From Bacillota bacterium (GTDB taxonomy: Bacteria > Bacillota > Clostridia > TANB77 > CAG-465): 64,000 bases of DNA. Position numbers and translations under genes: made by a program. Under the pieces are notes generated by a model. The model did no database searches. It was not told the DNA's origin and saw nothing but the letters and a program-made list of their open reading frames with translations. Location of the stretch: positions 20,265 through 84,264 of the forward strand of contig JAEYPQ010000040.1 in NCBI GenBank assembly GCA_023410645.1, in the 5' to 3' direction. The first letter of the stretch is position 1, and each line of letters begins with the position of its first letter. Shown here in pieces: positions 3,500 to 49,228 of this stretch.

Positions 3500-3528
3500 T
3501 TGAAAAAAGTTATTAAAAAATATATAAT
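3500..3528 (+). promoter_or_regulatory. Sigma-A-type promoter (-35 TTGAAA, 17-nt spacer, -10 TATAAT)
   Basis: Hexamers read directly at 3500-3505 and 3523-3528, about 55 nt upstream of the ATG at 3585. Confidence 0.5.
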
Positions 3529-3584
3529 ATATTGTGTATATATACTAACTGGTAGTATATATTTTTAAAAAATAGGAGGCGTAT

Positions 3585-6371
3585 ATGGAAAAAAGAAGAG
3601 GAATTTCATTAATAGTTTTAGTCATAACTATAATTGTGATTATAATACTTGCAGGAGCAATAATACTAAATTTAAGTAAAAATAATCCAATTGAAAGTGC
3701 CAGAAAAGCAAAGTTTTTAAATGATATAGATACATTTAAAAGTGAATTATCATTATATGAATTAGGTAAAATGGCAAATACAAATGGAAACTATGATCCT
3801 AAATTATTAAATGCAGATAAAGATAATTTATTTGACGGAAGCACAGAAGCAGTACCGGATAAGAACATGACGGACGTAATAGAATCAATGAAGGATACAG
3901 GCTATGAAAATAAACTTGAGATTGTAGCTGGAGAATTAGTTTATGTAGGAGATAGCGAAAAAGAATCATCTTGGTGTGATGGAGTAATAGAATCTAAAGA
4001 TTTTAAATTAGATGTAACAGTAATACCAGATGTGACAAGTTTAAATGGAACAATAACTCTTACAGGAGCATTTGTTGATCCAAATAAGATAGAATATTAT
4101 AGAATATACATATCAGAAACAAGTGGAAATTATCCAGAGTCATATATTCAAGAGATAACTGAAAAAAGTGCAACAGTAAACTTTAGTATATCACAAGGAA
4201 TAGAAGCAAATAAAACATATTATATAAAAGTCGTAGTAAAAATGAATAATGTTGCAGATACAAGAGAAAAAGAAGTAAAAGTAGTATCTAACGTAGATAA
4301 TATAGCGCCAAATTCGGCCCAAATATCTGTACCAAGTTATTCAAACAATTTAATAATAACACCAGTAGCAATAACATTAAGTGATAATGATGGTGGAAGT
4401 GGAATAAATAAGACAGGAAGCATGTATGTGTTAGATCAAACATCAACAAGTTATTCAGAATCAGATACAGTATGGGATACAGCAACAACTTTTAATTCAA
4501 CGGATTTCGTGGGAAATGTAGCAACAATAGCAATTGAAGTACCAGGAGACGGTGAATATTATATACATGTATTAGCAGTAGATGGAGCAGGAAACAAAAA
4601 GTCAGCAACATCAGGGAAAATTATCGTTGATACAACTATTCCAAATGAACCTGCAATAACATTACCAAGTAATGCTGCAACAAGTAACATACAAGCCACA
4701 GTGGTAATGAGTGATAATACAAATGGAAGTGGACTTGATTTAAATCAATGTAAATATATATATTCAACAGCATCAACACCATATGGAGATACAGAGAATA
4801 TATGGAATACTGCAACAGCATTTACAAGTGCTACACAAACAATAACAGTTACATCAAGTACAAATGAGGTATATTATTTACATGTATTACTAGTAGATAA
4901 AGCAGGAAATAGAAGAGAAGTGTTATCTTCTGGTGTAACCACAAATACAGATGTTCCAGTAGCACCAGTAATAACCGGAACAGTATCGAGTAACGTATGG
5001 ACAAATCAGAATTCAGTTACACTAACAGTAAATGAAGTAACATCAACTGGAATAGTAAGATATGAGTATAATATAAATGATGGAGCTTGGCAAACATACA
5101 ATAGCACAAATAAAATAGTGGTGTCAACTGAAGGAACAACATATGTAAAAGCAAGGGCTGTAAATAATGTTGGAACAAATGGGGCAATTAGTACAGGATA
5201 TGTAGTAAGAATAGATAAAGTATCACCTACGATCACAGCATCAAGTGGAGGAAGTACTGCTTCTAGTGTAACGGTAATTGCAACAGCAAGTGACAGTGGA
5301 AGTGGAATAAATGGATCTAGTTATCAATATTCAAAGGATAATGGATCAACTTGGACAGGAGCAATTGGTTCAAATAGCTATACATTTAATAGTCTATCTA
5401 CAGGAACATATAATTGTAAAGTAATGGTATCGGATAATGCAGGAAATAGTACTATATCAAATACTATTTCAATAACAGCAATAGAGTATCCACAATCTAA
5501 TTCTCCAGGTACAGAAGAAACTCCAGGAACACCAAAAACAGAAAATACTACAATAAATGGTAAAACACCAACATATAATAATCCAGTAATACCAGCAGGA
5601 TTTAGTCCTGTAAATACTTCAACTGCTAGTTGGACTTTATCAGGAGGAATTCCACAAGGATGGAATAATGGGTTAGTAATACAAGATAATTATGGAAATC
5701 AGTTTGTATGGGTACCAGTAGATGGAGTAAATGTACCATATGCTAAATGGTGTACATCAGGTCAATCATATTTATACACAGTTGAAGGTACACTTCCAAC
5801 TGGATTTAGTGAAGATACAATAACTACTAAATATAAAGGATTTTATATAGCAAGATATGAAGCAAGTTATAATGGTGGAAAAGTAGCAAGTAAAAAAGGA
5901 AGTTCGTGGGTATATATAACTTTCTCAGATGCAAAAAATTACTGTGAAAGCATGTCAACTGGTTATGGATACAATACAGCACTGCTAGGAACAACAATAT
6001 TGACTGGAATACAATGGGATACTGTAATGAAATGGATAGAAAATTCTGGAATAAGTGTTACAAATAGTACATCATGGGGTAATTATTTCGATGCGTCATT
6101 TACATATACATATCCAGAAACAGGAAATAAACCTGATAATTCAAGTGCAATATTATATACAGGAGCAACAAGCAGAAATAGTGCAAAAAATATATATGAT
6201 TTAGCAGGAAATATGGAAGAATGGACAAATGAGAAATATTCAGGTGATTATGTTAGACGTGGTAGCCACTTCAACACTACCGGTTATGCATATCCAGCAG
6301 CTTATCGTACATCTTCTTTGATTGGTTCTAATGGTAGTGCCGGATTTAGACCAATGCTATATGTTAAATAA
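3585..6371 (+). CDS. Large modular surface protein. Type-IV-pilin-like N-terminal module lacking Glu5, then four tandem Ig-like repeats, then a C-terminal FGE-sulfatase/SUMF1-like domain.
   Basis: N-terminus KRRG|ISLIVLVITIIVIIILAGAII fits a class-III signal with Val in place of Glu5. Four ~95-aa repeats end in D-x-AGN. C-terminus has GNMEEWT...RGSHF...GFRP, which are FGE-sulfatase signatures. AGGAGG RBS. Confidence 0.75.
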   Translation: MEKRRGISLIVLVITIIVIIILAGAIILNLSKNNPIESARKAKFLNDIDTFKSELSLYELGKMANTNGNYDPKLLNADKDNLFDGSTEAVPDKNMTDVIESMKDTGYENKLEIVAGELVYVGDSEKESSWCDGVIESKDFKLDVTVIPDVTSLNGTITLTGAFVDPNKIEYYRIYISETSGNYPESYIQEITEKSATVNFSISQGIEANKTYYIKVVVKMNNVADTREKEVKVVSNVDNIAPNSAQISVPSYSNNLIITPVAITLSDNDGGSGINKTGSMYVLDQTSTSYSESDTVWDTATTFNSTDFVGNVATIAIEVPGDGEYYIHVLAVDGAGNKKSATSGKIIVDTTIPNEPAITLPSNAATSNIQATVVMSDNTNGSGLDLNQCKYIYSTASTPYGDTENIWNTATAFTSATQTITVTSSTNEVYYLHVLLVDKAGNRREVLSSGVTTNTDVPVAPVITGTVSSNVWTNQNSVTLTVNEVTSTGIVRYEYNINDGAWQTYNSTNKIVVSTEGTTYVKARAVNNVGTNGAISTGYVVRIDKVSPTITASSGGSTASSVTVIATASDSGSGINGSSYQYSKDNGSTWTGAIGSNSYTFNSLSTGTYNCKVMVSDNAGNSTISNTISITAIEYPQSNSPGTEETPGTPKTENTTINGKTPTYNNPVIPAGFSPVNTSTASWTLSGGIPQGWNNGLVIQDNYGNQFVWVPVDGVNVPYAKWCTSGQSYLYTVEGTLPTGFSEDTITTKYKGFYIARYEASYNGGKVASKKGSSWVYITFSDAKNYCESMSTGYGYNTALLGTTILTGIQWDTVMKWIENSGISVTNSTSWGNYFDASFTYTYPETGNKPDNSSAILYTGATSRNSAKNIYDLAGNMEEWTNEKYSGDYVRRGSHFNTTGYAYPAAYRTSSLIGSNGSAGFRPMLYVK

Positions 6372-6417
6372 TAAGTTGAAATAATATATAATTGAAGTAT
6401 CATAATAAATAAAATTT

Positions 6418-6458
6418 AAAATGGGTTTGATTTTTTATTAAGCCCATTTTATTTATTA
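6418..6458 (+). terminator. Rho-independent terminator
   Basis: Stem AAAATGGG / CCCATTTT followed by a T-rich tract, downstream of the 3585..6371 gene. Confidence 0.55.
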
Positions 6459-16792: not shown

Positions 16793-19579
16793 ATGTGGAA
16801 TGTAAATGCAGTTAAGAAATCTTTATTTGATAAAAATATAGATTCCTCTACATATAATCCTAATATTGTAATCAATGAGCAAAGTAAAAATATAAAAGAT
16901 AAAATTAAAGAATTATTAAATAAATCTACTCGTGTGGACATTGCTGTTAGTTATGTAGTTTGGTCTGGATTATCTTTAATTTATGAAGATTTAAAAAAGT
17001 TTGATTCTAATAGTCGTTTAATACTAACAACAGAGGGGATGGTTACAGATCCTAGATCTTTAAATAAGTTAAATGAATTAAATATGGAAGTTAAGATTTA
17101 TATACCTAATGTGGATAGTAAAGGATTTCATTTAAAGACATATTTATTTGAAACTGATAATAATACAACATTATTAATAGGTAGTTCAAATATTTCTGCT
17201 CGCGCATTCGGTTTAGTACATGAAATGGTGGCAGAAATAAATGCAAAAAATGAAGGTTATATTATAGAAAAGTATAATAATACATTTAATGATCTTTGGA
17301 ATGATAAATGTTCAGAAGTATTAACTGAGGAATTTATTTACAATTATTCAAATATTTATACTCAAAATAAAAAAATTGAAATTAATGTTGCTAAGATGTT
17401 TTTAGAAGTAAAAAATATCAAACCGAATTATATGCAAGAGAGAGCTTTAGAAGCTTTAAAAGAGTGTAGGGAAGTGAGTAATAGAGGTTTAGTTATAGCA
17501 GCTACTGGTACTGGTAAAACATATTTATCTGCTTTTGATGTAAAAAATTGTAATGCAAAAAAGGTATTGTTTTTAGTTCATAACAGACTGATTTTAACAT
17601 CTGCTATAGAAACATATAAAAAAATATTTAAAAATAAAACTATGATAGAATTAGATTCAAACAATATGGAGAAAATTCATAATTTCGATTTCATTTTCAC
17701 AACTGATAAAACAGCATACAATAAACTTATAAGTAATATTCCAAATAATTACTTTGATTATATTATATATGATGAAGCTCATAAGATAGGATTTGATACA
17801 AAATATAGAGACATTATTGATTATTTTAATCCTAAATTTACTTTAGGTATAACTGCAACTCCTGAACGAACTGACAATCCTGATTATTTGTTCAAAATTT
17901 TTAAATATAATATTCCATATGAGATAAGGCTTTTAGATGCAATGAATCATGAATTGGTGTGTCCATTTACTTATTATGGTTTAAATTTAGAAAATAAATT
18001 ATTGAAAAGTAATGAAGAATTTAATTATGAAGAATTAGCAAAATATATTAAAAATACAATTGATAAAAAAGGCCATTATGGTGAAAAACTAAAATGTTTA
18101 GTTTTTTGTTCAAATATTAAAGAGGCAAATTCAGTTTCTTCACAATTAAATAATTTGGGATTTATATCTGTTAGTGCTGTTAGCGGTGAAAATGAATTAA
18201 CTAGAAGTGGTATAGAAAAATATATAATAGATTTAAAATCAGATGAAAAAGGAACTTTAGAAATAATATGTACTGTTAATAAATTTAATGAAGGTATTGA
18301 TATTCCTGATATTAATACAATAATTATGCTTAGAAACACAATATCTGCAATAATATATATTCAGCAATTAGGCCGTGGTTTAAGACGAACTGAGGACCCT
18401 CATAAGTATGTAACTGTTTTTGATATAATTGGTAATTCTAAAAATAATTATTCTATTGCTCAAGTATTAACTGGAAATACTACCGTTGATAAAAGAAAAC
18501 TATATATGTATGCTAATAAAGGATTTGAGACAGTTTCACCTTTTATTAATGTTGAAATAGAAAAAGAAGCAATGGAGAAGATAATTAGATCCATTTCAGT
18601 CAATTTTACAGTAAAGAATGAATTAATGGAAAAATTCAGAAATGAATTTTATAGGTTTGAAGTAATTCCTACTTTAAAAGAAATGTACTTAAATCCAAAT
18701 TTTAAAGAAATGGAATTATTACAATTATTGTTTAAAAATTTCTATGAACCTTTTAAAGAATATTATTTTAGAAAATATAACATTGAAAAAGAAAATAAAT
18801 TTTTGGATAATTTTTTTACGCTTATTACTCAATTTGTATTTAGAGGATACAATTCTGTAACATTACAGGAGTATGTTAAATTATTAAAAGGGGATAAAAT
18901 TCAAAATGATAAGTTAAGAAAAATATTACTCCCTTACGAGTTTGAAGATGGTATTTCAACTGCAATAAATAGTGAATACAACAAAAAGGGAAAAGAATTT
19001 CCAAAAATCTTTGAGTTTGAAAATGGATATTTAAAACTAAACAATGAAATCGTAATTTTATTGAAAAAATATAAAAGTATTGAATTATTTAATGAGCATA
19101 TAGAATTATTTGAGTATTTAGGTGAAAATAATGATTATACTATGAAATTATTTGATTTGGTAGATAAAGGTGAATTTTTATATAATCTTGACAGTAAAGA
19201 CTGCTATATGAATGTTACAGGTGAAAGAATAGATAAAGAAAAAAAGACTGTATATTGTATTGTTAAAGTTACTGAAAAAGAAACATTCTATGATAATTAC
19301 ATAGTGGATAATAATAAGATTATATATTATACAAAGGCTTCTAAAACCAAGGAAGCAGCATGTGAAAAAATAAGAGTGATTATTGAAGAGAATTATAAAT
19401 TTTATTTATGTGCACAATTTCCACATTTAGGTTATTCTAACACATCGTACTTTAATCTAGGTAATGTTAAGGTAAACAAAATTTCAGAAGTGCAAAAGGT
19501 AGATGATGGAAAATATAATCATAGAATAGAATTTATTGTAGAACGTGATATACCTTTTGAGTTGTTGCAATATAAATAG
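16793..19579 (+). CDS. SauUSI-like Type IV (modification-dependent) restriction endonuclease: PLD nuclease, SF2 helicase/ATPase, DUF3427-like C-terminal domain
   Basis: HKD motif GFHLKTYLF...LLIGSSNIS. Walker A AATGTGKT. DEAH box YDEAHK. Helicase motif VI QQLGRGLRR. Roughly 330-aa C-terminal extension. Single gene with its own GGAGG RBS. Confidence 0.65.
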   Translation: MWNVNAVKKSLFDKNIDSSTYNPNIVINEQSKNIKDKIKELLNKSTRVDIAVSYVVWSGLSLIYEDLKKFDSNSRLILTTEGMVTDPRSLNKLNELNMEVKIYIPNVDSKGFHLKTYLFETDNNTTLLIGSSNISARAFGLVHEMVAEINAKNEGYIIEKYNNTFNDLWNDKCSEVLTEEFIYNYSNIYTQNKKIEINVAKMFLEVKNIKPNYMQERALEALKECREVSNRGLVIAATGTGKTYLSAFDVKNCNAKKVLFLVHNRLILTSAIETYKKIFKNKTMIELDSNNMEKIHNFDFIFTTDKTAYNKLISNIPNNYFDYIIYDEAHKIGFDTKYRDIIDYFNPKFTLGITATPERTDNPDYLFKIFKYNIPYEIRLLDAMNHELVCPFTYYGLNLENKLLKSNEEFNYEELAKYIKNTIDKKGHYGEKLKCLVFCSNIKEANSVSSQLNNLGFISVSAVSGENELTRSGIEKYIIDLKSDEKGTLEIICTVNKFNEGIDIPDINTIIMLRNTISAIIYIQQLGRGLRRTEDPHKYVTVFDIIGNSKNNYSIAQVLTGNTTVDKRKLYMYANKGFETVSPFINVEIEKEAMEKIIRSISVNFTVKNELMEKFRNEFYRFEVIPTLKEMYLNPNFKEMELLQLLFKNFYEPFKEYYFRKYNIEKENKFLDNFFTLITQFVFRGYNSVTLQEYVKLLKGDKIQNDKLRKILLPYEFEDGISTAINSEYNKKGKEFPKIFEFENGYLKLNNEIVILLKKYKSIELFNEHIELFEYLGENNDYTMKLFDLVDKGEFLYNLDSKDCYMNVTGERIDKEKKTVYCIVKVTEKETFYDNYIVDNNKIIYYTKASKTKEAACEKIRVIIEENYKFYLCAQFPHLGYSNTSYFNLGNVKVNKISEVQKVDDGKYNHRIEFIVERDIPFELLQYK

Positions 19580-23734: not shown

Positions 23735-24259
23735 ATGTATATTTCAAATGAATTATTTACTTTCTCTAAATTCGTAATTATAGGTATTATTATTTCAATT
23801 ATATTTGATTTTTTTAGAGCATATAGAAAAACAAAAAAGGTCAGTAATACTGTCGTAATAATTCAAGATATAATATATTTCATTATTGCGACAATTATAG
23901 TAACACTTAGCATAATATTTTTCTTAGATTCGGTTATAAGACTATATATTTTTGTAGCCATAATTATTGGTTGTTTAATATATTTGTCTTTTTTCAGCAA
24001 GTATATTATGAAATTTTACATTAATTCAATTAAAACTTTTAAGGCGGCTATCGACTTATTTTTTACTCCAATAAGGCTGTTTATGCAGTTTATTCATATA
24101 ATTTATAATTTTTTGGAAAAATATATAAAAAAATGTTGCAAAATGATAAAAAATATGGTATTGTATTTATACAAACGCATAGTTCACGGGTTAAAGAAGA
24201 TTAGGATAAAGAAAAAAAAGAATACAAAAGAGGGTTCAAAAGATGAAAAAAGTGCATAA
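23735..24259 (+). CDS. yabQ: Spore cortex biosynthesis membrane protein YabQ
   Basis: Small multi-TM protein immediately after yabP and before divIC, as in the Bacillus and Clostridium yabPQ-divIC locus. Confidence 0.6.
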   Translation: MYISNELFTFSKFVIIGIIISIIFDFFRAYRKTKKVSNTVVIIQDIIYFIIATIIVTLSIIFFLDSVIRLYIFVAIIIGCLIYLSFFSKYIMKFYINSIKTFKAAIDLFFTPIRLFMQFIHIIYNFLEKYIKKCCKMIKNMVLYLYKRIVHGLKKIRIKKKKNTKEGSKDEKSA

Positions 24260-24548
24260 TGTTGCTATTAAAAATAATGATAAAAGAAATGGATTAATCA
24301 AAGTAGCTTCTTTATTTTTTGTTGTATATTTTATATATACTATGGTTAATCAACAAATTCAAATTAATAAATATAATTCACAAATACAGATGTATTCTTC
24401 AGATATTGAGTCTAAGCAAAAATTAGTGGAATATTACAAGAATCAGAAAAATAATATTCAAAGTGATCAGTACATAGAATCAGTTGCAAGAGATATTCTT
24501 GGATATGTAAAACCATATGAGAAAATTTTTGTGGATGTTAATAGATAA
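24243..24548 (+). CDS. divIC: Septum formation initiator DivIC/FtsB family
   Basis: Single N-terminal TM followed by a coiled-coil region. Located after yabQ. Confidence 0.65.
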   Translation: MKKVHNVAIKNNDKRNGLIKVASLFFVVYFIYTMVNQQIQINKYNSQIQMYSSDIESKQKLVEYYKNQKNNIQSDQYIESVARDILGYVKPYEKIFVDVNR

Positions 24549-26668: not shown

Positions 26669-26710
26669 AACTTAAAAAGGTGCTAATCATCCTTTTTAAG
26701 TTATTTTTAT
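26669..26710. terminator. Bidirectional Rho-independent terminator
   Basis: Perfect 12-bp stem AACTTAAAAAGG / CCTTTTTAAGTT with flanking T/A runs, lying between convergent genes. Confidence 0.75.
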
Positions 26711-27442
26711 AAATTTTATTGTTACGTTTTGATTATCATTTGTAGCAAGTATTTTTATATCACCATCTGTATTGTTTTTAAACTTCAAGTCAAGAGAACC
26801 ATAAAATACAGTAGCATCTTTATCTTTTGGCACGTAATATACTCTTCTACTATGTGGATGTCTTTCTGTTATCTCTAAACCTGCAATTAATGCTGCATTA
26901 TATACAGTACTACTAATTTGACACATACCACCACCAAAAACTTTTATTTTATCTCCTTCAGAGTCAAATCCTACAGCTTCTTTATATCCTTGTTCTTCTC
27001 CCATTGGTCCAATAGTATTATTAAATGAAAATTCTTCACCTTTTTTTATTATTGCATTGTTTAATTTCGAATCTGCTAAAGTTATATTGTGCACTCTATT
27101 TGCATCCTTATCATAAAGTGTAGAAGTAAATGAAGCTATTTCAGTTTCAACAGGAGTCTTTACTGGGACTTTATTGGGGTCTACATTCATATTATTTTTT
27201 TCATCTTCTGTTATATCTCCAGAAGTAGATGAGTTTGAATTATTTCCAGAAGAATTTGAATTGTTTTCTGAAGAATTGGGTATATTATTTGATGTATTAT
27301 TTGTTTCAGATTTTCCTATTAAGTTGCTTGAAATATTACTATTTGAAACAAAAACAGAATATACGACAAAGAAAATTGAAGCAATTATAACAATAGAGAC
27401 AATAATTAATAAAATTTTTTCACTATTATCTTCTTTTTTCAT
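26696..27442 (-). CDS. VanW-family protein (TM anchor, Asn/Ser-rich linker, VanW domain)
   Basis: C-terminal GGGMCQISSTVYNAALIAGLEITERHPHS matches the VanW domain. Low-complexity NNSNSSGNNSNSS linker. Confidence 0.7.
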   Translation of the reverse strand: MKKEDNSEKILLIIVSIVIIASIFFVVYSVFVSNSNISSNLIGKSETNNTSNNIPNSSENNSNSSGNNSNSSTSGDITEDEKNNMNVDPNKVPVKTPVETEIASFTSTLYDKDANRVHNITLADSKLNNAIIKKGEEFSFNNTIGPMGEEQGYKEAVGFDSEGDKIKVFGGGMCQISSTVYNAALIAGLEITERHPHSRRVYYVPKDKDATVFYGSLDLKFKNNTDGDIKILATNDNQNVTIKFIKIT

Positions 27443-29658: not shown

Positions 29659-31317
29659 ATGAATAGAATTAAACAAAAGAAAGGAATTTCCTTAATAGTA
29701 CTAATAATAACAATTATAGTTATTATAATTTTGGCCGGTGCAATAATTTTAAATTTAACAAAAAATAATCCGATTGAATCTGCCAGAAAAGCAAAATTTG
29801 CAAGTAATATTGATCAATATGAAAGTGAACTTTTTATATGGGAATCAGGGGAAACTACAAAAACTAATGGAGAATTTGATCCAAGAGATTTAAATGCCGA
29901 TAAAGATGGAGGATCATATAAGGATTTAACAATTCAAGATATAATAACTTCAATGAATGATAATGATGCAAATAATTTTGAAATACAAGATGGAAAACTT
30001 GTATATGTAAATGAAGATAATAAACAAGAATATGAATGGGCAGATGAACTTGGAAAAACACCAGATTCAAATATTCCAACAGAACCAGAAAGAGTTGAAT
30101 CCACTTCTGATTTATGGGAGTTTGATCCGACAACTGGTACTATCATATCATACATAGGAGGTAGAACTGATAATCCATATGATAATAATATAGGAACTTT
30201 AGAAAGTATTACAATACCTAATTATGTGGATGGAGTAGCAGTAAAAAAATTGAGCAGAAGTACATTCAATAGTATACTGAAATTTGATATGACAGATGTA
30301 ACATCCTTAAAAACAGTAATTATATCTGATGGAATTGAAGAAATAGGAAACGGAGCATTTTATAATTGTCCTTCGATTACTAATGTAAAAATTCCTGATA
30401 GTGTTACAAAGATTGAATATAATGCCTTTGGAGGATGTATTAACTTGAAAGAAATAACTTTACCAAGTAATCTAGAAAATATTGGATATGCTGCATTTAG
30501 CGATTGTTCAAATCTAGAGAGTGTAAAAGTTTCAAATAAACAGTTAAATAGTGTTGTACCAGAAATTGTAGGTGGTGTAGATGAAAAAGCATTTACAAAT
30601 TGTGAAAAGTTAGTAAGTGTTGTGCTACCTGATAAATTGACAAGCATTGGCGATCATGCTTTTGCATATGCAACATCATTACAAAGTGTACATTTACCTA
30701 ATAATACAATAAGTATAGACTATGCTGCTTTTGATCAATGTAACGTATTATCAAATTTAACAATTCCTAGTAAAGTAACATCATTAAGCCAATATGCACT
30801 CACTGGTTGTTATGCTTTAAAAGATATAGTTTTAGCTAATGGTTTAGAAACAATAGGAGAGAATTGGTTTAGTAGTCTTTCTTATATAGAAAATGTTACA
30901 ATACCTAATACAGTTAAAACTATAGAATATAATGCATTTTATGCTTGTACTGGACTAAAAAATGTTATATTACCAGATAGTGTTACAACTATTGGAGATC
31001 AAGCATTTGCTAATTGTGGTGCATTAGAGAATATAAAATTATCTAGTAATTTAATAAGCATTGGGAGTGGAACTTTTTTAGCTTGTAAACTTACATCAAT
31101 AGAGTTACCAAATAAGTTAACAACAATTGGCTCAAATACTTTTTTAGGGTGTGAGCAATTAACAAGTATTACTATATCTAATAGTGTAACTTCAATTGGG
31201 GAAGGTGCATTTAATTATTGCACAAGACTTACAAGTATAACAATAAATAAACCAATTAATTCATTAACAGGTTCACCTTGGGGAGCACCAAGTGCAAATA
31301 TAAGTTGGATTGGCTAA
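29659..31317 (+). CDS. Modular surface protein: type-IV-pilin-like N-terminal module (paralogous to 3585..6371) plus BspA-type leucine-rich repeats
   Basis: Start reassigned to MNRIKQKKGISLIV... after a GGGAGG RBS. The N-terminal ~130 aa align with the 3585 protein (NNPIESARKAKF, NADKD, LVYV). The C-terminal ~20-23-aa LRR units (IP.SVT.IG..AF..C..L) are BspA/TpLRR-type. Confidence 0.75.
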   Translation: MNRIKQKKGISLIVLIITIIVIIILAGAIILNLTKNNPIESARKAKFASNIDQYESELFIWESGETTKTNGEFDPRDLNADKDGGSYKDLTIQDIITSMNDNDANNFEIQDGKLVYVNEDNKQEYEWADELGKTPDSNIPTEPERVESTSDLWEFDPTTGTIISYIGGRTDNPYDNNIGTLESITIPNYVDGVAVKKLSRSTFNSILKFDMTDVTSLKTVIISDGIEEIGNGAFYNCPSITNVKIPDSVTKIEYNAFGGCINLKEITLPSNLENIGYAAFSDCSNLESVKVSNKQLNSVVPEIVGGVDEKAFTNCEKLVSVVLPDKLTSIGDHAFAYATSLQSVHLPNNTISIDYAAFDQCNVLSNLTIPSKVTSLSQYALTGCYALKDIVLANGLETIGENWFSSLSYIENVTIPNTVKTIEYNAFYACTGLKNVILPDSVTTIGDQAFANCGALENIKLSSNLISIGSGTFLACKLTSIELPNKLTTIGSNTFLGCEQLTSITISNSVTSIGEGAFNYCTRLTSITINKPINSLTGSPWGAPSANISWIG

Positions 31318-42794: not shown

Positions 42795-44312
42795 ATGAAA
42801 CTAAGAAAACTAACTTTTAGTATGTTACTTTTAGTAGTTACACTATTAACTGTTAATTTTGTAAGTGCTGCTGAAAGTAATTTGACAATATCAGATATTA
42901 AATTTGATATTAAAAATACTGTAGATGGTGAATTTATTCTTAACTTTAAATCTAGTAAAGAGATAGACTTAAGCAAAGAAAATGCAAATATAAAAATTGA
43001 ATATTTTACTGAGGCAGAAAATGGTACTCTAATACCAATTAAAAATAAATTGGAAGATGATAGTCCACTAGTTAAAGATAAAACTTGGGCTGGGTATATT
43101 TGGACTGCAAGTGGTAGTTATTCAACAGGAACAGATGGATATGACCAATATTCTGATATAGTACCTGCAAATACAGAACTTGCAACTAAATTAAAAAGAG
43201 GGGTAGCTTCTGATGGAGATTCAATGAACTATATTGATATCGATTGGACTGATACAAGTGTAAAATATGTTGTTAAAATTACAATAACAGATGAATTTGG
43301 CAATGGTGAGAGTGTAATTGCAAAAAACTATACTGATGAAGTTGAGCGTACTCAAATCATTGGAGAAGAATATAGCATTTATGGATTTACAAATAACACT
43401 TCTCAAAAAGAATTTATTGAGGGAAAAGAAGCTGAATTTAATTTAGGAATATTAGCAAATACAATAAAAGAAAAGGGTTATGCTTCTGTTAAAATACTTG
43501 CTACAGTTACTAAACCAAATGGCGGAGAACTTAATATAACTGGAATTAATTCTAATCCATTTACATTAACTAAGGATTATAATGAAAGTAGTATAATTAA
43601 AGTTACACCTAATATATATGGTGAATATAAAATTAAATTTGACCTAGTAGATTTAAATAATAACTCTACAGTTATAGCTACACAAACAATAACTTTAGAT
43701 GTTAAAGAAAAATCAATTATTGAAAAGATTCAAGATTCCTCAAGTGACAAAAAAGCAGAAATTAATTTAATAAACACAACTGTTGTTACTGCACAAGCTT
43801 TTCAAGCAGCTAAAGAAAATGATGTTGATGTTACATTTAATGTAAAAAATGAAGATAAAGTAGTATATAGTTGGACTTTTGCAAGTAACGCAATAAATAA
43901 TGTTATTGATATTGATTTAGGACTTAATGTTGGTTCATCTGATAAGAAATCTGAAATTGAAAAAATAACAAAAAATGAGGATGTATTATATTTATCATTT
44001 ACTCATCATGGTGAATTGCCAGCACCTGCAACTATGAAAGTTTTTGTTGGTGATAAATATTCTGATGGAACAATAGTTAAGTTATATTATTATAATGAAG
44101 ATACTAATCAAGTTGAATTAATAAGTAAGGATATTGAAGTAAAAGATGGTTATGTTACTTTTACAATAGAACATTGTTCAGATTATTTCTTAGAGGAACA
44201 AGTTGCTTCAAATATAAATAATCCAGATACAGGAGATATAAATGTAATTGCACTTGGTTCAATTTCTATATTAAGTATTGCTGGAATAATATATCTAAAA
44301 TTTAAAAAATAA
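42795..44312 (+). CDS. Sortase-anchored surface protein with an NPDTG cell-wall sorting signal
   Basis: N-terminal signal peptide ending in VSA|AES. C-terminal NPDTG, then a hydrophobic segment, then KFKK. The class B sortase gene is adjacent. Confidence 0.75.
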   Translation: MKLRKLTFSMLLLVVTLLTVNFVSAAESNLTISDIKFDIKNTVDGEFILNFKSSKEIDLSKENANIKIEYFTEAENGTLIPIKNKLEDDSPLVKDKTWAGYIWTASGSYSTGTDGYDQYSDIVPANTELATKLKRGVASDGDSMNYIDIDWTDTSVKYVVKITITDEFGNGESVIAKNYTDEVERTQIIGEEYSIYGFTNNTSQKEFIEGKEAEFNLGILANTIKEKGYASVKILATVTKPNGGELNITGINSNPFTLTKDYNESSIIKVTPNIYGEYKIKFDLVDLNNNSTVIATQTITLDVKEKSIIEKIQDSSSDKKAEINLINTTVVTAQAFQAAKENDVDVTFNVKNEDKVVYSWTFASNAINNVIDIDLGLNVGSSDKKSEIEKITKNEDVLYLSFTHHGELPAPATMKVFVGDKYSDGTIVKLYYYNEDTNQVELISKDIEVKDGYVTFTIEHCSDYFLEEQVASNINNPDTGDINVIALGSISILSIAGIIYLKFKK

Positions 44313-44373: not shown

Positions 44374-45186
44374 TTATTTTATTAATTTTGCATGTAATAC
44401 TACCCTTTGTGAATCATTGTAACCATAACAAGTTGATAAAGTAAGTATATTATCATAAATATTTACATCTATGCCGAAATCATATATACTTCTTTCTTTT
44501 ATTGTTTTAAGAAATTCTAAAAATTCATTATTTTTAAAAGAAGTGGTAATATAATATGTTTCATTTGGAATTTTGTATACACTAAATACTTGCCAAGATA
44601 ATATTGAATTTTTGGTATAAATATATATTATTTTATTATTTTCATTTTCATACCAATTTTTATTAAGTATTTTTTTTAGACTTCCAAACATGCTATTATC
44701 TAGTCTATTATGTCCATAAATAACGTTATTTTTACTTAAATTATTAATATCATTCTTATAATCTAAAAATATTGCACCAGAACTATTTTTAAAGTTTTTG
44801 AAATCTCGATTAAGATAATATTCGTTATCTTTATACTTAACTACTGGATAATTTATATCTGTATTGTTAACTTTTATCCAACCAACAACATCTTTATTTA
44901 TTTTTTCAAGTGATTCGAAATCAACTGAAAGAGTATTAATATTATCTTTATTGTCTGTATGATTATTACTTGTCGTATCGATATATTGACTTAATTCATT
45001 TTTTAGATTATTTGCAGAATAGTTATCGTATATCCAAGTAAATAATCTAGAAGCTGAATATATTAAAATAATTAATAAGATCAATATAATAATAAGTTCT
45101 AATTTACTTAATTTTTTTTGTGATTTTGATTTATATATATTTCGCCTTTTTTCACTTATATGTGATTTTCTCCTAGTTTCATCCAT
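44374..45186 (-). CDS. srtB: Class B sortase
   Basis: Collinear with S. aureus SrtB: VVGWIKVNNTDINYPVV, NEYYL, GAIFLDY, VIYGHN, and the catalytic TLSTC motif. Confidence 0.85.
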   Translation of the reverse strand: MDETRRKSHISEKRRNIYKSKSQKKLSKLELIIILILLIILIYSASRLFTWIYDNYSANNLKNELSQYIDTTSNNHTDNKDNINTLSVDFESLEKINKDVVGWIKVNNTDINYPVVKYKDNEYYLNRDFKNFKNSSGAIFLDYKNDINNLSKNNVIYGHNRLDNSMFGSLKKILNKNWYENENNKIIYIYTKNSILSWQVFSVYKIPNETYYITTSFKNNEFLEFLKTIKERSIYDFGIDVNIYDNILTLSTCYGYNDSQRVVLHAKLIK

Positions 45187-45404: not shown

Positions 45405-46058
45405 ATGATAAAAATATTAGTAGTGGAAGATGAAAAATCAATATCCAATTTAATAAAAGTAAATTTGATTGATGCTGGTTATTACTGCAATGTTGCTTAT
45501 GATGGATTGACTGCTGCAGATTTTATAGAACAAAATCAATATGATTTAATTCTTCTTGATATAATGTTACCAAAGTTAGATGGATACGAATTAATTGAAT
45601 ATATAAAAACAAGAAATATACCGGTTATATTTTTAACAGCTAGGACAAGCATAAATGACAAAGTAAAAGGACTTAAAATAGGAGCAGAAGATTATATTAC
45701 AAAACCATTTGACATAGAGGAATTGCTTGCAAGAATTGAAGTTGTTTTAAGAAGATACAATAAAAATAGTGTAAATGTGGTAATAGACGATATTAATATT
45801 AACATTGAATCAAGAAAAGTAACAAAAAATGGCAAGACGGTTGAACTTACAAACAAAGAATTTGAGCTACTTTTAATGTTTGTTAGAAATAAAAATATAG
45901 CCCTATATAGAGATATTATATTTGAAAAAGTATGGGAAAGTGATTATTTAGGCGATACAAGAACGGTTGATCTTCATGTTCAAAGATTAAGGAAAAAGTT
46001 AAAACTTGGAAATAGAATTAAATCAGTTTACAAAATTGGATATATATTAGAGGTATAA
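45405..46058 (+). CDS. OmpR-family response regulator
   Basis: Receiver domain (DLILLDIMLPKLDG) and a winged-helix C-terminus. Confidence 0.85.
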   Translation: MIKILVVEDEKSISNLIKVNLIDAGYYCNVAYDGLTAADFIEQNQYDLILLDIMLPKLDGYELIEYIKTRNIPVIFLTARTSINDKVKGLKIGAEDYITKPFDIEELLARIEVVLRRYNKNSVNVVIDDININIESRKVTKNGKTVELTNKEFELLLMFVRNKNIALYRDIIFEKVWESDYLGDTRTVDLHVQRLRKKLKLGNRIKSVYKIGYILEV

Positions 46059-46059
46059 T

Positions 46060-47472
46060 ATGAATGTAGTTTGGAAAATATTTATCGTAATAATCTGCTT
46101 AATATCAATTGTCTTATCAGTAGGTGGATATTTACTTATAGAACATGGTTTTAGTAAAACTATAGAAAATGAAATTCAAAGTGTTGATAGTGATATAATA
46201 TCTATAAAATTTCTGTATGAATCGGAAGCTATAAATGTATTAAATAATAATTATAGTTTTAGTGATAGTACTATACAATATATATCTAATAGACTACAAA
46301 ATAATGATATGTACAAAAATTATAATGTGTATGTATTAAATGAGGAAAAAGATTTAATATACCAAAATAGTAATTTGAATTTTGATAATACTTTAATAAA
46401 CAGTTTAAAAGAAAATACAAGAGCATATAAAATTATAAATATTGATAGGGCATATTATATAAATAGCATATGTGAAATAAATATAAAAGATAAAAATATA
46501 TATATTCAAATAAATAAAGATATCTCATCAATATTTGAAATGAAAAATGAACAGATAAATATGCTTGAGATTATGCTTGTTATAGTGATAAGCTTTGGAA
46601 GTATATTTATATATGCAATTTCCTTATCCATAACAAGACCAATTAGAAAATTGATTGAATCAGTAAAAAATATTTCTAAAGGAAACTATAATCAAAGGCT
46701 AGACGTAAAAGGAAGTGGAGAAATAGTTGAACTTTCAAATGAGTTTAATATAATGGCTGAAGCAATAGAAAAAAACATTACGAAACTTGAGAATATTGCA
46801 AGTATGCAGGAAAATTTTGTATCAAATTTTACACACGAGCTAAAGACTCCTTTGACATCAATAATAGGATATTCAGATATGTTAAGAACTAAAATATTAA
46901 GTCAAGAAATGATATATAATAGTTCAAATTATATATATGGTGAAGGGAAACGTTTAGAAGCATTAACTATAAAACTTCTTGATTTAATTTCTTTAAACAA
47001 TAAGGCATTCATATTTAAAAGGACTAATACTAAAAAATTAATAAAAGATGTACTTAATATAATAAATCCAATTCTTACTAAAAGGAATATCGTTGTAAAT
47101 TCTAAAATAGAAGATTCATATATAAGAATAGATGAAGATTTAATAAAAACATTATTATTAAATATTTTTGATAATGCAATTAAAGCCTCAAAAGATAATA
47201 ATAGTATAGATGTTATTGGAATTATAGAAGATAAAAAATATCTAATTAAAGTAAAAGATTATGGTATAGGTATAAAAAAAGAAGAAATTGAAAAGATAAC
47301 TGAACCATTTTACATGGTAGACAAATCTCGTTCCCGTAAAGAAAATGGAATAGGTTTAGGTCTTAATCTTTGCAAAAAAATTGCAGATATTCATAATGCT
47401 GAATTAAATTTTGAAAGTGAATTTGGATCTTATACCACAGTTACCTTTAAAATTGATATTGATAACAATTAA
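46060..47472 (+). CDS. Sensor histidine kinase
   Basis: Two N-terminal TM helices, a HAMP-like region, H-box FTHELKTPLTSI, G-box GIGLGLNL. Confidence 0.85.
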   Translation: MNVVWKIFIVIICLISIVLSVGGYLLIEHGFSKTIENEIQSVDSDIISIKFLYESEAINVLNNNYSFSDSTIQYISNRLQNNDMYKNYNVYVLNEEKDLIYQNSNLNFDNTLINSLKENTRAYKIINIDRAYYINSICEINIKDKNIYIQINKDISSIFEMKNEQINMLEIMLVIVISFGSIFIYAISLSITRPIRKLIESVKNISKGNYNQRLDVKGSGEIVELSNEFNIMAEAIEKNITKLENIASMQENFVSNFTHELKTPLTSIIGYSDMLRTKILSQEMIYNSSNYIYGEGKRLEALTIKLLDLISLNNKAFIFKRTNTKKLIKDVLNIINPILTKRNIVVNSKIEDSYIRIDEDLIKTLLLNIFDNAIKASKDNNSIDVIGIIEDKKYLIKVKDYGIGIKKEEIEKITEPFYMVDKSRSRKENGIGLGLNLCKKIADIHNAELNFESEFGSYTTVTFKIDIDNN

Positions 47473-48245: not shown

Positions 48246-48358
48246 ATTATGATACAAAAAATATACAAGAAATATAAGAAAAATATATACTTTTGTTACA
48301 TTTTAGAAAAAATGGTATGATAATATACCCCTATCTAAGTTTAGATGGGGGATTATTT

Positions 48359-49228
48359 ATGAAAAGTAATATAAAAAAGAAAAATAATGTATTATTAAAA
48401 CTTTTATTATTTATAATTATTATAATAATTGCATATTTAAGTATTATGGAAATAAAAAATTATAAAGATAAGAACGATTCAATTTCTGCAAATAGTAGTA
48501 TAGATGGAGTTGAAAAAAAAGAAGAGTTTAAAGATTTATACTACTATAATAAAGAAAATGAAAAAAGGTATGAAGATTATAAAGAGAAAAATCCAGATAT
48601 ATCAGTAGATGATGTAGTTTGGATGGTAAATGCAAATATTGATAATGAATTTTATACTAATACAAATAAAATAGAAGATGTTGATAGTGATTTATTATTG
48701 GTAAATAAATACAATAAGTTACCAGATAACTTTGTACCTAAAGATTTGGTTAAGCTAGAATCCGGATATTATGTTACAAGTAATACTAAAACTGCATTTG
48801 AAAAAATGCAAGATGATGCTAGAGAACAAGGATATAACATTGGTGTTACTTCAGCATATAGAAGTATTAATTCACAAAAGTATTTGTATAATAATTATTT
48901 AACGGAAGATACACAAGAAGTTGTTGATACATATAGTTCAAGGCCAGGATATAGTGAACATCATACTGGTGAGGCAATTGATTTAATTGGATCATCTGCT
49001 AGTATGGAAGAGTTTGAAAAAACTAAGGAATCAAAGTGGGTTGATGAAAATGCGTATAAATATGGATTTGTAGTAAGATATAAAAAAGGATACGAAAAAA
49101 TAACAGGATATGAATATGAGCCATGGCATATAAGATATGTAGGGGTTCAAATAGCAACAGAAATGAAAGATAAGAATATTAATACACTTGAAGAGTATTA
49201 TGAAAAATATATTAAGTCAAAAAAGTAG
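48359..49228 (+). CDS. VanY-type D-alanyl-D-alanine carboxypeptidase (M15B)
   Basis: SAYRS..Q, SEHHTGEAIDL and EPWHIRYVG motifs. Start set to MKSNIKKKNN after a GGGGGA RBS. Confidence 0.8.
   Translation: MKSNIKKKNNVLLKLLLFIIIIIIAYLSIMEIKNYKDKNDSISANSSIDGVEKKEEFKDLYYYNKENEKRYEDYKEKNPDISVDDVVWMVNANIDNEFYTNTNKIEDVDSDLLLVNKYNKLPDNFVPKDLVKLESGYYVTSNTKTAFEKMQDDAREQGYNIGVTSAYRSINSQKYLYNNYLTEDTQEVVDTYSSRPGYSEHHTGEAIDLIGSSASMEEFEKTKESKWVDENAYKYGFVVRYKKGYEKITGYEYEPWHIRYVGVQIATEMKDKNINTLEEYYEKYIKSKK

Follow-up and report, generated by a model that had tools for sequence, protein, structure and literature searches.

A predicted clostridial surface adhesin with a Glu5-less pilin-like N-terminal module, Ig-like domains and an FGE-sulfatase/C-type-lectin-fold head

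Introduction

The modular pilins surveyed by Raynaud et al. (2021; PMC8179133), PilB and PilC of S. sanguinis among them, combine a small N-terminal pilin module with one or more functional binding modules, and an adhesive role is predicted for them. The module consists of a short leader with its Gly, a hydrophobic alpha1N, an amphipathic alpha1C and a small head, as it does here. Their N-termini belong to IPR012902 (N_methyl) and possess Glu5, and those that have been studied are encoded with pilus machinery. Pilin N-termini without Glu5, accompanied by an extra domain beyond the pilin core, are known from cap minor pilins (the PilHIJK-type tip cap, and GspK with its inserted alpha-domain), the products of single-copy genes in minor-pilin operons (PMC8179133, PMC10191384). 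Display without a long filament is described for the archaeal bindosome of Sulfolobus, in which large sugar-binding surface proteins, the binding proteins of ABC transporters, follow a class III signal and a prepilin-peptidase-type route and are served by a dedicated Bas assembly system (PMC3047682). In uncultured, reduced-genome gut Clostridia of the order TANB77, pilin-like proteins with a single TMH and no database domains (including a 621-aa member with only partial structural similarity to TadE/PilV) are encoded in one conserved Tad-like cluster, right after the CpaB/TadZ/CpaE/TadA/TadBC genes (Kim et al., 2024; PMC11680825).

Here we consider a gene of an uncultured low-GC gut-type Clostridium, at 3585..6371 of the window (the whole 64-kb stretch of DNA that was analysed), whose product combines a pilin-like module with five Ig-like domains and an FGE-sulfatase fold. 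An earlier reading made from the letters of the DNA (the sequence-only reading) had likened it to the modular pilins, and the overall architecture, a pilin module followed by domains foreign to the pilus, does fit that concept (PMC8179133). However, the survey's operational test, a match to IPR012902, fails here. The module lacks Glu5, curated models are silent, and genes of this kind are scattered, in dozens of copies per genome and with no machinery linked to them in the 1.5 Mb examined. In comparison with GspK, the extra domains form a C-terminal Ig stalk and lectin-like head, and in comparison with the TANB77 proteins, which come from similar organisms, the genes are dispersed. It is most likely that the product is a surface adhesin, predicted to be displayed via a pilin-derived anchor or cap module. 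Our preferred, more specific reading is that it belongs to a large paralogous family of adhesins in uncultured low-GC Clostridia, in which a Glu5-less pilin-derived module of about 135 aa would provide export and anchoring for interchangeable extracellular payloads; we give this an even chance of being right.

Organization of the gene

The features of the gene, and of a second family member in the window, are collected in Table 1. The expression signals indicate a probable monocistronic unit; a protein of identical sequence (P0001) has been recorded from a metagenome scaffold of 89 kb. The open reading frame, the N-terminus with Val at +5 and the Ig-like repeats that the sequence-only reading had reported are all real.

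Table 1. Features of the gene at 3585..6371 and of a second family member in the window
Feature	Position	Strand	Basis or detail
Sigma-70-like promoter candidate, TTGAAA-17-TATAAT	3500..3528	+	Consensus scan, 11/12 matches; consensus match alone
RBS, AGGAGG	3574..3579	+	5 nt upstream of ATG, read off sequence
Whole CDS	3585..6371	+	ATG start, 928 aa + stop
Conserved pilin-like N-terminal module, aa 1-138	3585..3998	+	AF2, conservation profile, pilin profile matches
Basic leader MEKRRG, aa 1-6, with invariant Gly as last residue; prepilin peptidase would cut after Gly6	3585..3602	+	
Hydrophobic alpha1N-like helix ISLIVLVITIIVIIILAGAIILNLS, aa 7-31, Val replacing Glu at +5	3603..3677	+	Near-invariant across family
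First beta-rich (fn3/Ig-like) domain, aa 141-238	4005..4298	+	Weak fn3 match, E=0.35
Four tandem bacterial Ig-like repeats	4299..5480	+	aa 239-350, 351-456, 457-546, 547-632
Pro/Thr/Gly-rich linker, aa 633-662	5481..5570	+	Read off sequence; low pLDDT at start of C-terminal model
FGE-sulfatase/C-type-lectin-fold domain, aa 663-928; predicted non-catalytic ligand-binding head	5571..6368	+	
Intrinsic-terminator-like hairpin, then T-rich tail	6417..6451	+	
Second family member, 552 aa, module fused to BspA-type leucine-rich repeats	29659..31317	+	Motif scan, translation

The N-terminal module and its kinship with type IV pilins

The protein begins MEKRRG/ISLIVLVITIIVIIILAGAIILNL (a slash marks an actual or potential cleavage point), with the short positive leader and the Gly at -1 that characterize class III signals. 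Among homologues this Gly is invariant (106/106), 169 of 227 have K or R at -2, and the leaders have a median length of 6 aa; we infer that cleavage may take place after Gly6. At +5, where type IV pilins have Glu, 201 of the 227 homologues have Val, the remainder having I (10), T (9), A (3), L (3) or M (1), so that the missing Glu5 noted in the sequence-only reading is a feature of every homologue compared. The module continues through alpha1N, an NNP kink, an amphipathic alpha1C (35-65) and four short strands to a terminal helix, and the AF2 model (mean pLDDT 87, >90 over most residues) has helices at 9-32 and 35-65. As in pilins, in which about 21 mostly hydrophobic residues lead into an amphipathic alpha1C, the first part of the long helix is hydrophobic, over aa 7-31, and in the family alignment this part is far more conserved than the remainder of the protein.

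How firmly can such an N-terminus be tied to type IV pilins? PF07963 and TIGR02532, the models by which the sequence-only reading had proposed to judge the matter, gave no match up to E=10, whether with the whole protein or with aa 1-44 or 1-140 alone; no Pfam or NCBIfam family covers aa 1-138; and Foldseek of the module against the PDB gave no matches. As far as curated models go, this outcome formally speaks against a pilin link. The PpdD and GspG models match from residue 1 below threshold (E=0.02, far below the cut-offs), and several homologues are named 'pseudopilin PulG' or 'PilE' in JGI annotation. A profile of 43 family N-termini, run against all 177,635 PDB sequences, had Geobacter PilA-N as its best match (E=2.2e-4, negligible bias), with PulG, PilE1, PilA and MshA among further top matches; pilins account for 6 of the 27 sequences at E<=10 and for four of the top five. 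The alignment to Geobacter PilA-N is in register from its KKG/FTLIE leader through alpha1C, ISLIVLVITIIVIIILAGAIILNLS lying against FTLIELLIVVAIIGILAAIAIP, and so extends 30 residues beyond the hydrophobic part; that to PulG likewise reaches alpha1C. The class III-like signal and pilin-like helix of the sequence-only reading are thereby upheld, and, as regards the signal and the alpha1 helix, a relationship between the module and type IV pilins is supported. The wider idea of a modular surface protein on a pilin-like scaffold stands in respect of this kinship, the absence of Glu5 and the FGE fold, and falls short in that the curated pilin models are silent.

The silence of the N_methyl models, the absence of Glu5 and the lack of linked machinery in the window or in the 1.5 Mb examined would also fit a plain Sec signal-anchor, or a signal peptide cut at LAGA/I, with no link to pilins and a purely compositional resemblance; the small residues A23-G24-A25 could mimic an AXA site. 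That site, however, is buried within the 25-residue hydrophobic helix and not at its end, and on this reasoning alone cleavage by signal peptidase I was judged unlikely. In addition, the real Sec signal in the window looks different, the in-register match to pilins continues past the hydrophobic part, and an invariant Gly after a basic leader, with a near-invariant helix, across more than 2,600 clusters is unexpected for a simple anchor. We consider this explanation improbable.

The Ig-like domains and linker

The four tandem Ig-like repeats of the sequence-only reading were borne out, and a fifth beta-rich segment (aa 141-238), which it had left uncounted, precedes them and is distinct from them by internal comparison. 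Each of the four ends in a D-x-AGN-type motif. Tandem matches above cut-off place them among bacterial Ig-like repeats: the NCBIfam OmpL47-type barrel model NF047446 matches four stretches (E=1.2e-13, 51.3 bits against a cut-off of 40), and Pfam Big_3_2 (PF12245) passes with 27.9 bits against 23.3, while matches to Big_13, PKD_4 and Y_Y_Y are under their Pfam cut-offs. Segments 239-350 and 351-456 match each other (E~1e-16), and a 39-nt repeat is present in the DNA at 4556-4594 and 4871-4909.

The C-terminal domain

With the whole protein, FGE-sulfatase (PF03781) is marginal, at 20.3 bits against a cut-off of 23.3; with the C-terminal 295 aa alone it scores 23.7 bits, just over, so that the check proposed in the sequence-only reading is narrowly passed. 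The assignment is backed by homologues with precomputed PF03781 matches, by one NCBI name and by the fold search. In a model of moderate confidence (pLDDT 68), the best structural matches were the non-enzymatic binders TvpA of T. denticola, TaqVP of Thermus and Mtd of a Bordetella phage, plus pFGE (SUMF2), which we take to be catalytically inactive; sequence identity to these proteins and PvdO is 11-17%. By gathering score and by structure, the domain has the FGE/C-type-lectin fold, carried here, in distinction from those proteins, on an Ig stalk and a pilin-like anchor. The sequence-only reading had considered the fold to be normally that of a cytosolic or periplasmic enzyme, or C-type-lectin-like; it serves not only in such enzymes but also, classically, as a scaffold for binding ligands outside the cell (TvpA, Mtd, TaqVP, PorK). 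The domain recognized by IPR005532 is presumably that of sulfatase-modifying factors. Its occurrence on a pilin scaffold, which the sequence-only reading thought unusual, has a precedent in eight proteins of architecture IPR012902-IPR005532 in Dataset S1 of Raynaud et al. (PMC8179133).

The PF03781 match, and the NCBI naming of one homologue (P0038) as a member of the SUMF1/EgtB/PvdO family, might suggest an active enzyme of that kind acting on extracellular substrates. The best fold matches are to non-enzymatic proteins, however, and neither Cys nor His occurs in the invariant or 90%-conserved columns of 23 homologues. The catalytic residues are, we assume, two active-site Cys in FGE and metal-binding His in EgtB/OvoA; since no Cys or His is invariant, the FGE pair cannot be conserved here, and the residues of the EgtB-type sulfoxide synthases are equally missing from the conserved columns. 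The query domain has only two Cys (in WCTSG and NYCESM), neither of them in the RGS...GFR segment, and between RG(G/S) and GFR the paralogues are hypervariable. An enzymatic role is thus scarcely credible.

Hypervariability among the paralogues also marks the last ~45 residues, in which Asn, Tyr, Ser and Gly abound, and the variable RG(G/S)-GFR loop lies in the C-terminal stretch where, as we understand it, the variable proteins of diversity-generating retroelements (DGRs) carry their variable region. Mutagenesis of this C-type-lectin loop by a DGR is nevertheless very unlikely: in contrast to DGR-linked binders, the gene has no template repeat within the 64-kb window (in blastn of its 3' ~270 nt, the best non-self match was 56 nt at 73%, E=0.014), and there is no reverse transcriptase among the Pfam-annotated ORFs of the window.

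A large family with varied payloads

The sequence-only reading had treated the protein as a one-off. Instead, it has a very large family of paralogues: the module heads proteins in 299 clusters at E<=1e-30, 2,604 at 1e-10 and 21,252 at 1e-3 (clusters formed at 50% identity). GTDB species genomes contain more than 565 exact matches to the motif, and one MAG has at least 22 family loci. The family is described by no curated model. Its payloads include FGE-sulfatase, LRR_5, GBS_Bsp-like and Gly_rich domains, and the genes are scattered, monocistronic and in housekeeping contexts. The window itself contains a second member, overlooked in the sequence-only reading, with a strong match to Pfam LRR_5 (E=5e-89). 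The first ~230 nt of the two genes are 77% identical and the rest is unrelated, so that the module DNA alone is common to both.

Short module-only ORFs of 125-145 aa were considered as a possible major pilin, and the idea was dropped for the cases inspected. One (L007) is a copy, interrupted by a nonsense codon, of the intact 412-aa fusion adjoining it, others (L003, L004) are stop- or decay-split versions of fusion genes, and in L005 the start of a 434-aa FGE-like ORF, in the +1 frame, follows after 4 nt on 10 contigs. In all, four of the short ORFs examined were broken fusions and the fifth was L005; no intact stand-alone form of the module was seen among them.

Pilus machinery and prepilin peptidase

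ORF annotation and motif scans agreed with the sequence-only reading that the window has no type IV pilus machinery. In the 1.5 Mb that surround 85 family loci, motif scans likewise turned up neither a pilus ATPase nor a platform protein nor a Glu5 pilin, the Walker A scans for T2SSE/TadA returning only UvrA and ABC ATPases. Related MAGs encode an A24 peptidase (Pfam E=1e-12), many orthologues being labelled 'MAG: Clostridia bacterium', and its gene lies in a conserved block, tyrS-HAD-A24-AP endonuclease-DUF2752...secA. At one locus (L068) it is 2.4 kb upstream of a family gene; the same block occurs without a family gene at L083 and L084, and we regard the adjacency as incidental.

Anchor or pilus tip?

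In the mechanism that we prefer, the protein would, to judge from sequence and model, enter the cytoplasmic membrane N-in/C-out by means of its short basic leader and its hydrophobic helix of 25 residues, and an A24 prepilin peptidase, encoded as an orphan gene in related genomes, would cut off the leader behind the invariant Gly6. Without Glu5 there would be, from established pilus biology, no salt bridge for stacking in a filament body (PMC10191384), and therefore the protein would stay anchored by its alpha1N helix and be at most a terminal subunit. The five Ig-like domains would form a stalk of ~20 nm (our own estimate) through the Gram-positive wall, displaying a non-catalytic head that would bind a ligand and in which the loop from RG(G/S) to GFR varies most; with many paralogues whose heads differ, the cell would be able to bind a variety of ligands. 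In function, the Sulfolobus bindosome comes closest to such a mechanism (PMC3047682). Pilin kinship, the absence of Glu5, the size and modularity of the family, the A24 peptidase of related MAGs, the contrast with the Sec-signal protein of the window and the expression signals speak for the anchor; the lack of PF07963 and TIGR02532 matches, and of machinery in the window or the 1.5 Mb around the 85 loci, the incidental position of the one adjacent A24 peptidase and the moderate confidence of the C-terminal model count against it, and the wall-spanning argument is weakened because some family members (412 aa) have no stalk.

Packing of helices in a filament core, or recognition by a machine, accounts for the extreme conservation of alpha1N more readily than simple anchoring does. 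This conservation favours instead a genuine modular minor pilin: after cleavage by prepilin peptidase, the protein would become the cap, the subunit loaded first, of a type 4 filament (T4P, Com-like or Tad-like) whose machinery and Glu5 major pilin are encoded elsewhere, with the C-type-lectin head at the tip and the paralogues as alternative tip adhesins. Known tip complexes are indeed capped by a Glu5-less subunit, in filaments assembled tip first (PMC10191384); for modular pilins an exposed position at the tip is predicted, and fusions of a pilin with an FGE-sulfatase domain are on record (PMC8179133); from the uncultured gut Clostridia of the order TANB77 a conserved gene cluster for a Tad-like pilus is reported (PMC11680825); and the alpha1 homology and the A24 peptidase would serve this explanation equally. 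However, at least 22 Glu5-less paralogues in one genome far outnumber the cap subunits of any known set, the genes are scattered singly in housekeeping contexts, neither a pilus ATPase nor a Glu5 pilin was detected in 1.5 Mb of neighbourhoods, the short ORFs examined included no intact stand-alone major-pilin version of the module, and a five-domain stalk would be needless on a pilus tip. A tip pilin seems to us a serious but rather unlikely alternative to the anchor.

A bolder possibility, which we put forward as speculative and doubtful, is that the Glu5-less module represents an unrecognized branch of the type 4 pilin world. In uncultured low-GC gut Clostridia, the orphan A24 peptidase and the dozens of scattered pilin-headed genes would then make up a general surface-display route, either a bacterial analogue of the bindosome or a Glu5-independent filament or stub, with heads (C-type-lectin/FGE-like, BspA-LRR, Bsp-like, Gly-rich) swapped onto one anchor.

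Implications

PilFind-type patterns rely on Glu5. The IPR012902-type tools do so too, and therefore a Glu5-less family of at least 2,600 clusters would have escaped every census of type IV or modular pilins; a display route of the kind just outlined, if it exists, would be invisible to all current pilin-finding tools, which require Glu5. Processing by A24 peptidases, if it takes place, would widen the substrate range of bacterial prepilin peptidases and provide a test case for the need for Glu5. Uncultured gut Clostridia with reduced genomes are organisms in which host-interaction molecules, such as the TANB77 pilin-like protein, are being sought (PMC11680825), and the family proteins are probably major adhesins of their surface. 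If the module is only an anchor, what is gained is useful annotation (a new N-terminal domain family and a lectin-like head) rather than new biology.

Other genes in the window

Another 928-aa ORF (16793-19579) was considered as a paralogue and rejected, as its product is an unrelated PLD-nuclease/helicase. At 42795-44312 the window encodes a protein with a conventional Sec signal and a sortase signal, which looks quite unlike the N-terminus of the 3585..6371 product.

The pilin-like N-terminal module

The 928-aa protein begins MEKRRG/ISLIVLVITIIVIIILAGAIILNLSKNNPIESARKAKF..., with Val at the Glu5 position of pilins as the sequence-only reading had it, and all elements described in that reading were found. 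Its gene, an intact ORF in a window of 25% G+C, looks like a transcription unit of its own, to judge from a predicted promoter, an AGGAGG and a hairpin (see the table), and a protein identical to its product is already recorded on an 89-kb metagenome scaffold. Among 106 non-redundant N-termini, no variation was seen at Gly6, Leu9, Leu12 and Ile21 and next to none at Thr15 (0.99), conservation exceeds 85% at nearly all positions of the hydrophobic stretch GISLIVLVITIIVIIILAGAVIL, and further conservation is seen at NNP, A39, F44, D47, F51, L55, Y58, G68, Y70, L75, A77, I99, Y107, G116, L118, Y120, G122 and W130. Homology searches show aa 1-138 to be a conserved module, more than a mere signal, while the overall identity to the query drops to 35-45%. 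The AlphaFold2 model of the module (43-sequence alignment as input) is confident (pLDDT 87) and lollipop-shaped, with helices at 9-32 and 35-65, four short strands and a terminal helix.

How close is this module to pilins? PF07963 and TIGR02532, with which the sequence-only reading expected its N-terminus to be checked, gave no match even at E<=10, and among curated models only the PpdD and GspG equivalogs appear (E=0.02, from residue 1). When a family profile was searched against all 177,635 distinct PDB sequences, the top match was a type IV pilin, Geobacter PilA-N (9egp_A; E=2.2e-4, bias 0.1), followed by a second geopilin (0.026), PulG (0.07), PilE1 (0.18), PilA (0.3) and MshA (1.6). KKG/ISLIVLVITIiViiILagavi of the profile lies in register with KKG/FTLIELLIVVAIIGILAAIAI of the Geobacter pilin, the alignment running into alpha1C (alpha1N and alpha1C being the pilin helix halves), and several homologues had independently been called 'pseudopilin PulG' or 'PilE' by the JGI pipeline. 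On our reading, leader and alpha1 are homologous to their type IV pilin counterparts, the argument for a pilin being this alpha1 homology alone. That the N-terminus is instead a plain signal-anchor unrelated to pilins seems to us quite improbable, given the register of the pilin match, the invariant Gly, and the different appearance of an ordinary protein with Sec and sortase signals in the same window. The pilin-type leader, Gly and alpha1 are present without Glu5, and the replacement is family-wide: none of 227 homologues has Glu at +5 (the fifth residue after Gly6), which is V in 201, I in 10, T in 9, A in 3, L in 3 and M in 1.

Features of the window and of loci outside it (L numbers, with positions local to each locus)
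Feature	Locus	Position	Strand	Remarks
Sigma-70-like promoter candidate	window	3500-3528	+	11/12 consensus matches
AGGAGG	window	5 nt 5' of ATG	+	
CDS	window	3585..6371	+	intact ORF, 928 aa
Terminator-like hairpin	window	6417-6451	+	3' of CDS
PLD-like nuclease + ResIII/DEAD/Helicase_C helicase	window	16793-19579	+	928 aa
YabP, YabQ, DivIC	window	23735-24548		sporulation
VanW-domain protein	window	26696-27442	-	
Second family member	window	29659-31317	+	module (KKGISLIVLIITIIVIIILAGAIIL...) + BspA-type leucine-rich repeats, LRR_5 E=5e-89
Sorting-signal protein	window	42795-44312	+	505 aa; no Pfam match; Sec signal (...VNFVSA/AE); C-terminal NPDTG sorting signal, hydrophobic tail, KFKK
Sortase	window	44374-45186	-	adjoins 505-aa protein
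Response regulator + HAMP histidine kinase	window	45405-47472	+	adjacent two-component system
VanY-type D-Ala-D-Ala carboxypeptidase	window	48293-49228	+	
SpoIIR	window	57518-58186		sporulation
Module-only ORFs + FGE-like ORFs	L007	10001-12768		
Module-only ORFs + FGE-like ORFs	L005	10001-11708		
Module-only ORFs + FGE-like ORFs	L003	8156-11804		
Module-only ORFs + FGE-like ORFs	L004	5874-6454		
Orphan A24 prepilin peptidase, ~249 aa	L068	6823-7572		
Orphan A24 prepilin peptidase, ~249 aa	L083	10001-10750		
Orphan A24 prepilin peptidase, ~249 aa	L084	4640-5389		

Stalk and head

Behind a beta-rich segment (aa 141-238), the tandem Ig-like repeats were confirmed: the NCBIfam OmpL47-type barrel model matches four mid-protein stretches (E=1.2e-13, above cut-off). 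Pfam Big_3_2 likewise scores above its cut-off in this region, and Big_13, PKD_4 and Y_Y_Y score below theirs. A clear match (E~1e-16) marks residues 239-350 and 351-456 as tandem copies, and 457-546 and 547-632 have a D-x-AGN-type closing motif in common.

The C-terminal FGE-sulfatase domain held up marginally (20.3 bits for the whole protein and 23.7 for the C-terminus alone, against a cut-off of 23.3). Of the first 120 homologues, about 27 have residues 663-928 in common with the query; six of these 27 carry precomputed PF03781 matches, and one is named 'SUMF1/EgtB/PvdO family nonheme iron enzyme' by NCBI. The Cys pair of FGE and a metal site with His, known from such enzymes, cannot be conserved here, since no Cys or His is invariant or even 90% conserved in the 23-sequence alignment of the domain. 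The fold of the head, FGE-sulfatase/CLec, is well known as a scaffold for binding outside the cell, and the domain most likely serves in binding. Variability in this alignment peaks near the C-terminus, between RG(G/S) and GFR, which is also the position of the variable region in DGR variable proteins of this fold, and a DGR was therefore looked for; the window held no template-repeat-like copy of the gene's last 272 nt, and its annotated ORFs no reverse transcriptase.

We take IPR005532 to be the sulfatase-modifying-factor domain. The sequence-only reading thought such a head unusual on a pilin scaffold; the 'modular pilin' concept is published, and as its survey includes eight IPR012902-IPR005532 proteins (PMC8179133), the fusion is not new.

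A large family with exchanged heads

The Glu5-less module and its very large family, in contrast, are not described in Pfam-A (2025), NCBIfam (2026) or the papers found, and a specialist is likely to be intrigued by the lack of Glu5 and the number of copies. The family is real and well defined. In HMMER searches of 1.84 billion cluster representatives, the number of clusters rises from 299 at E<=1e-30 to 2,604 at E<=1e-10 and to 21,252 at E<=1e-3, and GISLIVL[VI]IT is encoded by more than 565 stretches in GTDB species genomes. Among the 150 matches listed, the module is always N-terminal, in proteins mostly of 300-1,300 aa with varied payloads (FGE-sulfatase, GBS_Bsp-like, Gly_rich, LRR_5/LRR_8, fn3, Y_Y_Y and others). 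One MAG, 'Bacillota bacterium OH_SBrB_46', supplies at least 22 of the best 80 loci, with up to 92% identity to the query; the rest belong to uncultured Clostridia, in assemblies labelled chicken or coming from sheep rectum or Hadza human gut, and to 'Clostridium sp. CAG:465'. The uncultured host of the window looks like an endospore former, as sporulation genes are present.

The window itself contains another gene whose product has the same N-terminus, overlooked in the sequence-only reading; it is monocistronic, between genes for asparagine synthase and an HTH regulator. The two genes have 77% DNA identity over the module-coding ~230 nt only (3585-3824 versus 29675-29907) and are unrelated downstream. 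Since payloads differ and the window copies share only this 5' stretch, the module behaves as a cassette, and the paralogy is massive, with head swapping. The confinement of DNA identity to the module-coding part is consistent with recombination having shuffled heads onto a shared 5' unit.

Module-only ORFs of 128-143 aa, each followed by FGE-like ORFs without a signal, occur at four loci (L003, L004, L005, L007). We considered these as major pilins and rejected this for those inspected, which read as split fusion genes. At L007 an intact 412-aa module + FGE-like gene adjoins a copy interrupted by one nonsense codon, TAG for a Tyr codon of the intact tandem copy; at L005 a 434-aa FGE-like ORF begins in the +1 frame, 4 nt further on, a split repeated on 10 contigs from different samples; L003 and L004 hold decayed copies. 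Such splits may represent pseudogenisation or phase-variable adhesin expression.

No linked pilus machinery, and possible function

Both window copies, and family members examined elsewhere, are solitary amid housekeeping genes. As the sequence-only reading had stated, type IV pilus machinery is absent from the window (no T2SSE, T2SSF, PilM/N/O or A24 peptidase by Pfam among its ORFs). In motif scans of six-frame translations from 85 sources (1.5 Mb), the ATPases that matched were all UvrA or ABC proteins, none of them of the pilus type, and no canonical Glu5 pilin N-terminus was found. The same 1.5 Mb contained a single A24 peptidase, at L068 (Pfam E=1e-12). It lies upstream of a family gene, at a distance of 2.4 kb, and is part of a conserved tyrS-HAD-A24-AP endonuclease-DUF2752...secA block; linkage was rejected and the adjacency judged incidental, because other MAGs carry the block without a family gene. 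In uncultured Clostridia MAGs the neighbourhood reads tgt, cardiolipin synthase, tyrS, HAD phosphatase, A24, AP endonuclease, DUF2752, ..., secA. The L068 gene does show that organisms of this kind possess an orphan prepilin peptidase. There are no pilus genes beside the peptidase at L068, L083 or L084, and its orthologues, of ~246 aa, number more than 100, several of them titled 'MAG: Clostridia bacterium'. For TANB77, an order of uncultured gut bacteria, a 2024 paper reports a Tad-like pilus cluster whose pilin-like proteins could not be annotated (PMC11680825).

What might such a protein do? Within the filament core Glu5 salt-bridges to the N-terminal amine of the subunit next to it; a subunit without Glu5 caps tip complexes, and growth runs from tip to base (PMC10191384). 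We expect our protein to be inserted N-in/C-out and probably to be trimmed after Gly6 by the A24 peptidase. A role in the filament body would be impossible for it. It may cap a filament whose subunits are encoded elsewhere, and the extreme conservation of alpha1N speaks for this, which we nevertheless think rather unlikely. The large number of paralogues, scattered as they are, and the length of the stalk favour an anchor, the reading that we prefer and to which we would give an even chance: the protein would stay anchored via alpha1N while the stalk took the head through the wall.

Other genes of the window

The 505-aa sorting-signal protein is, by its predicted signals, a conventional wall-anchored surface protein of the same genome. 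The 928-aa nuclease-helicase, possibly for defence or repair, is unrelated to our protein, the equal length being coincidental. Finally, the VanW, VanY-type and two-component genes may be a module for the response to cell-wall stress or to glycopeptides.
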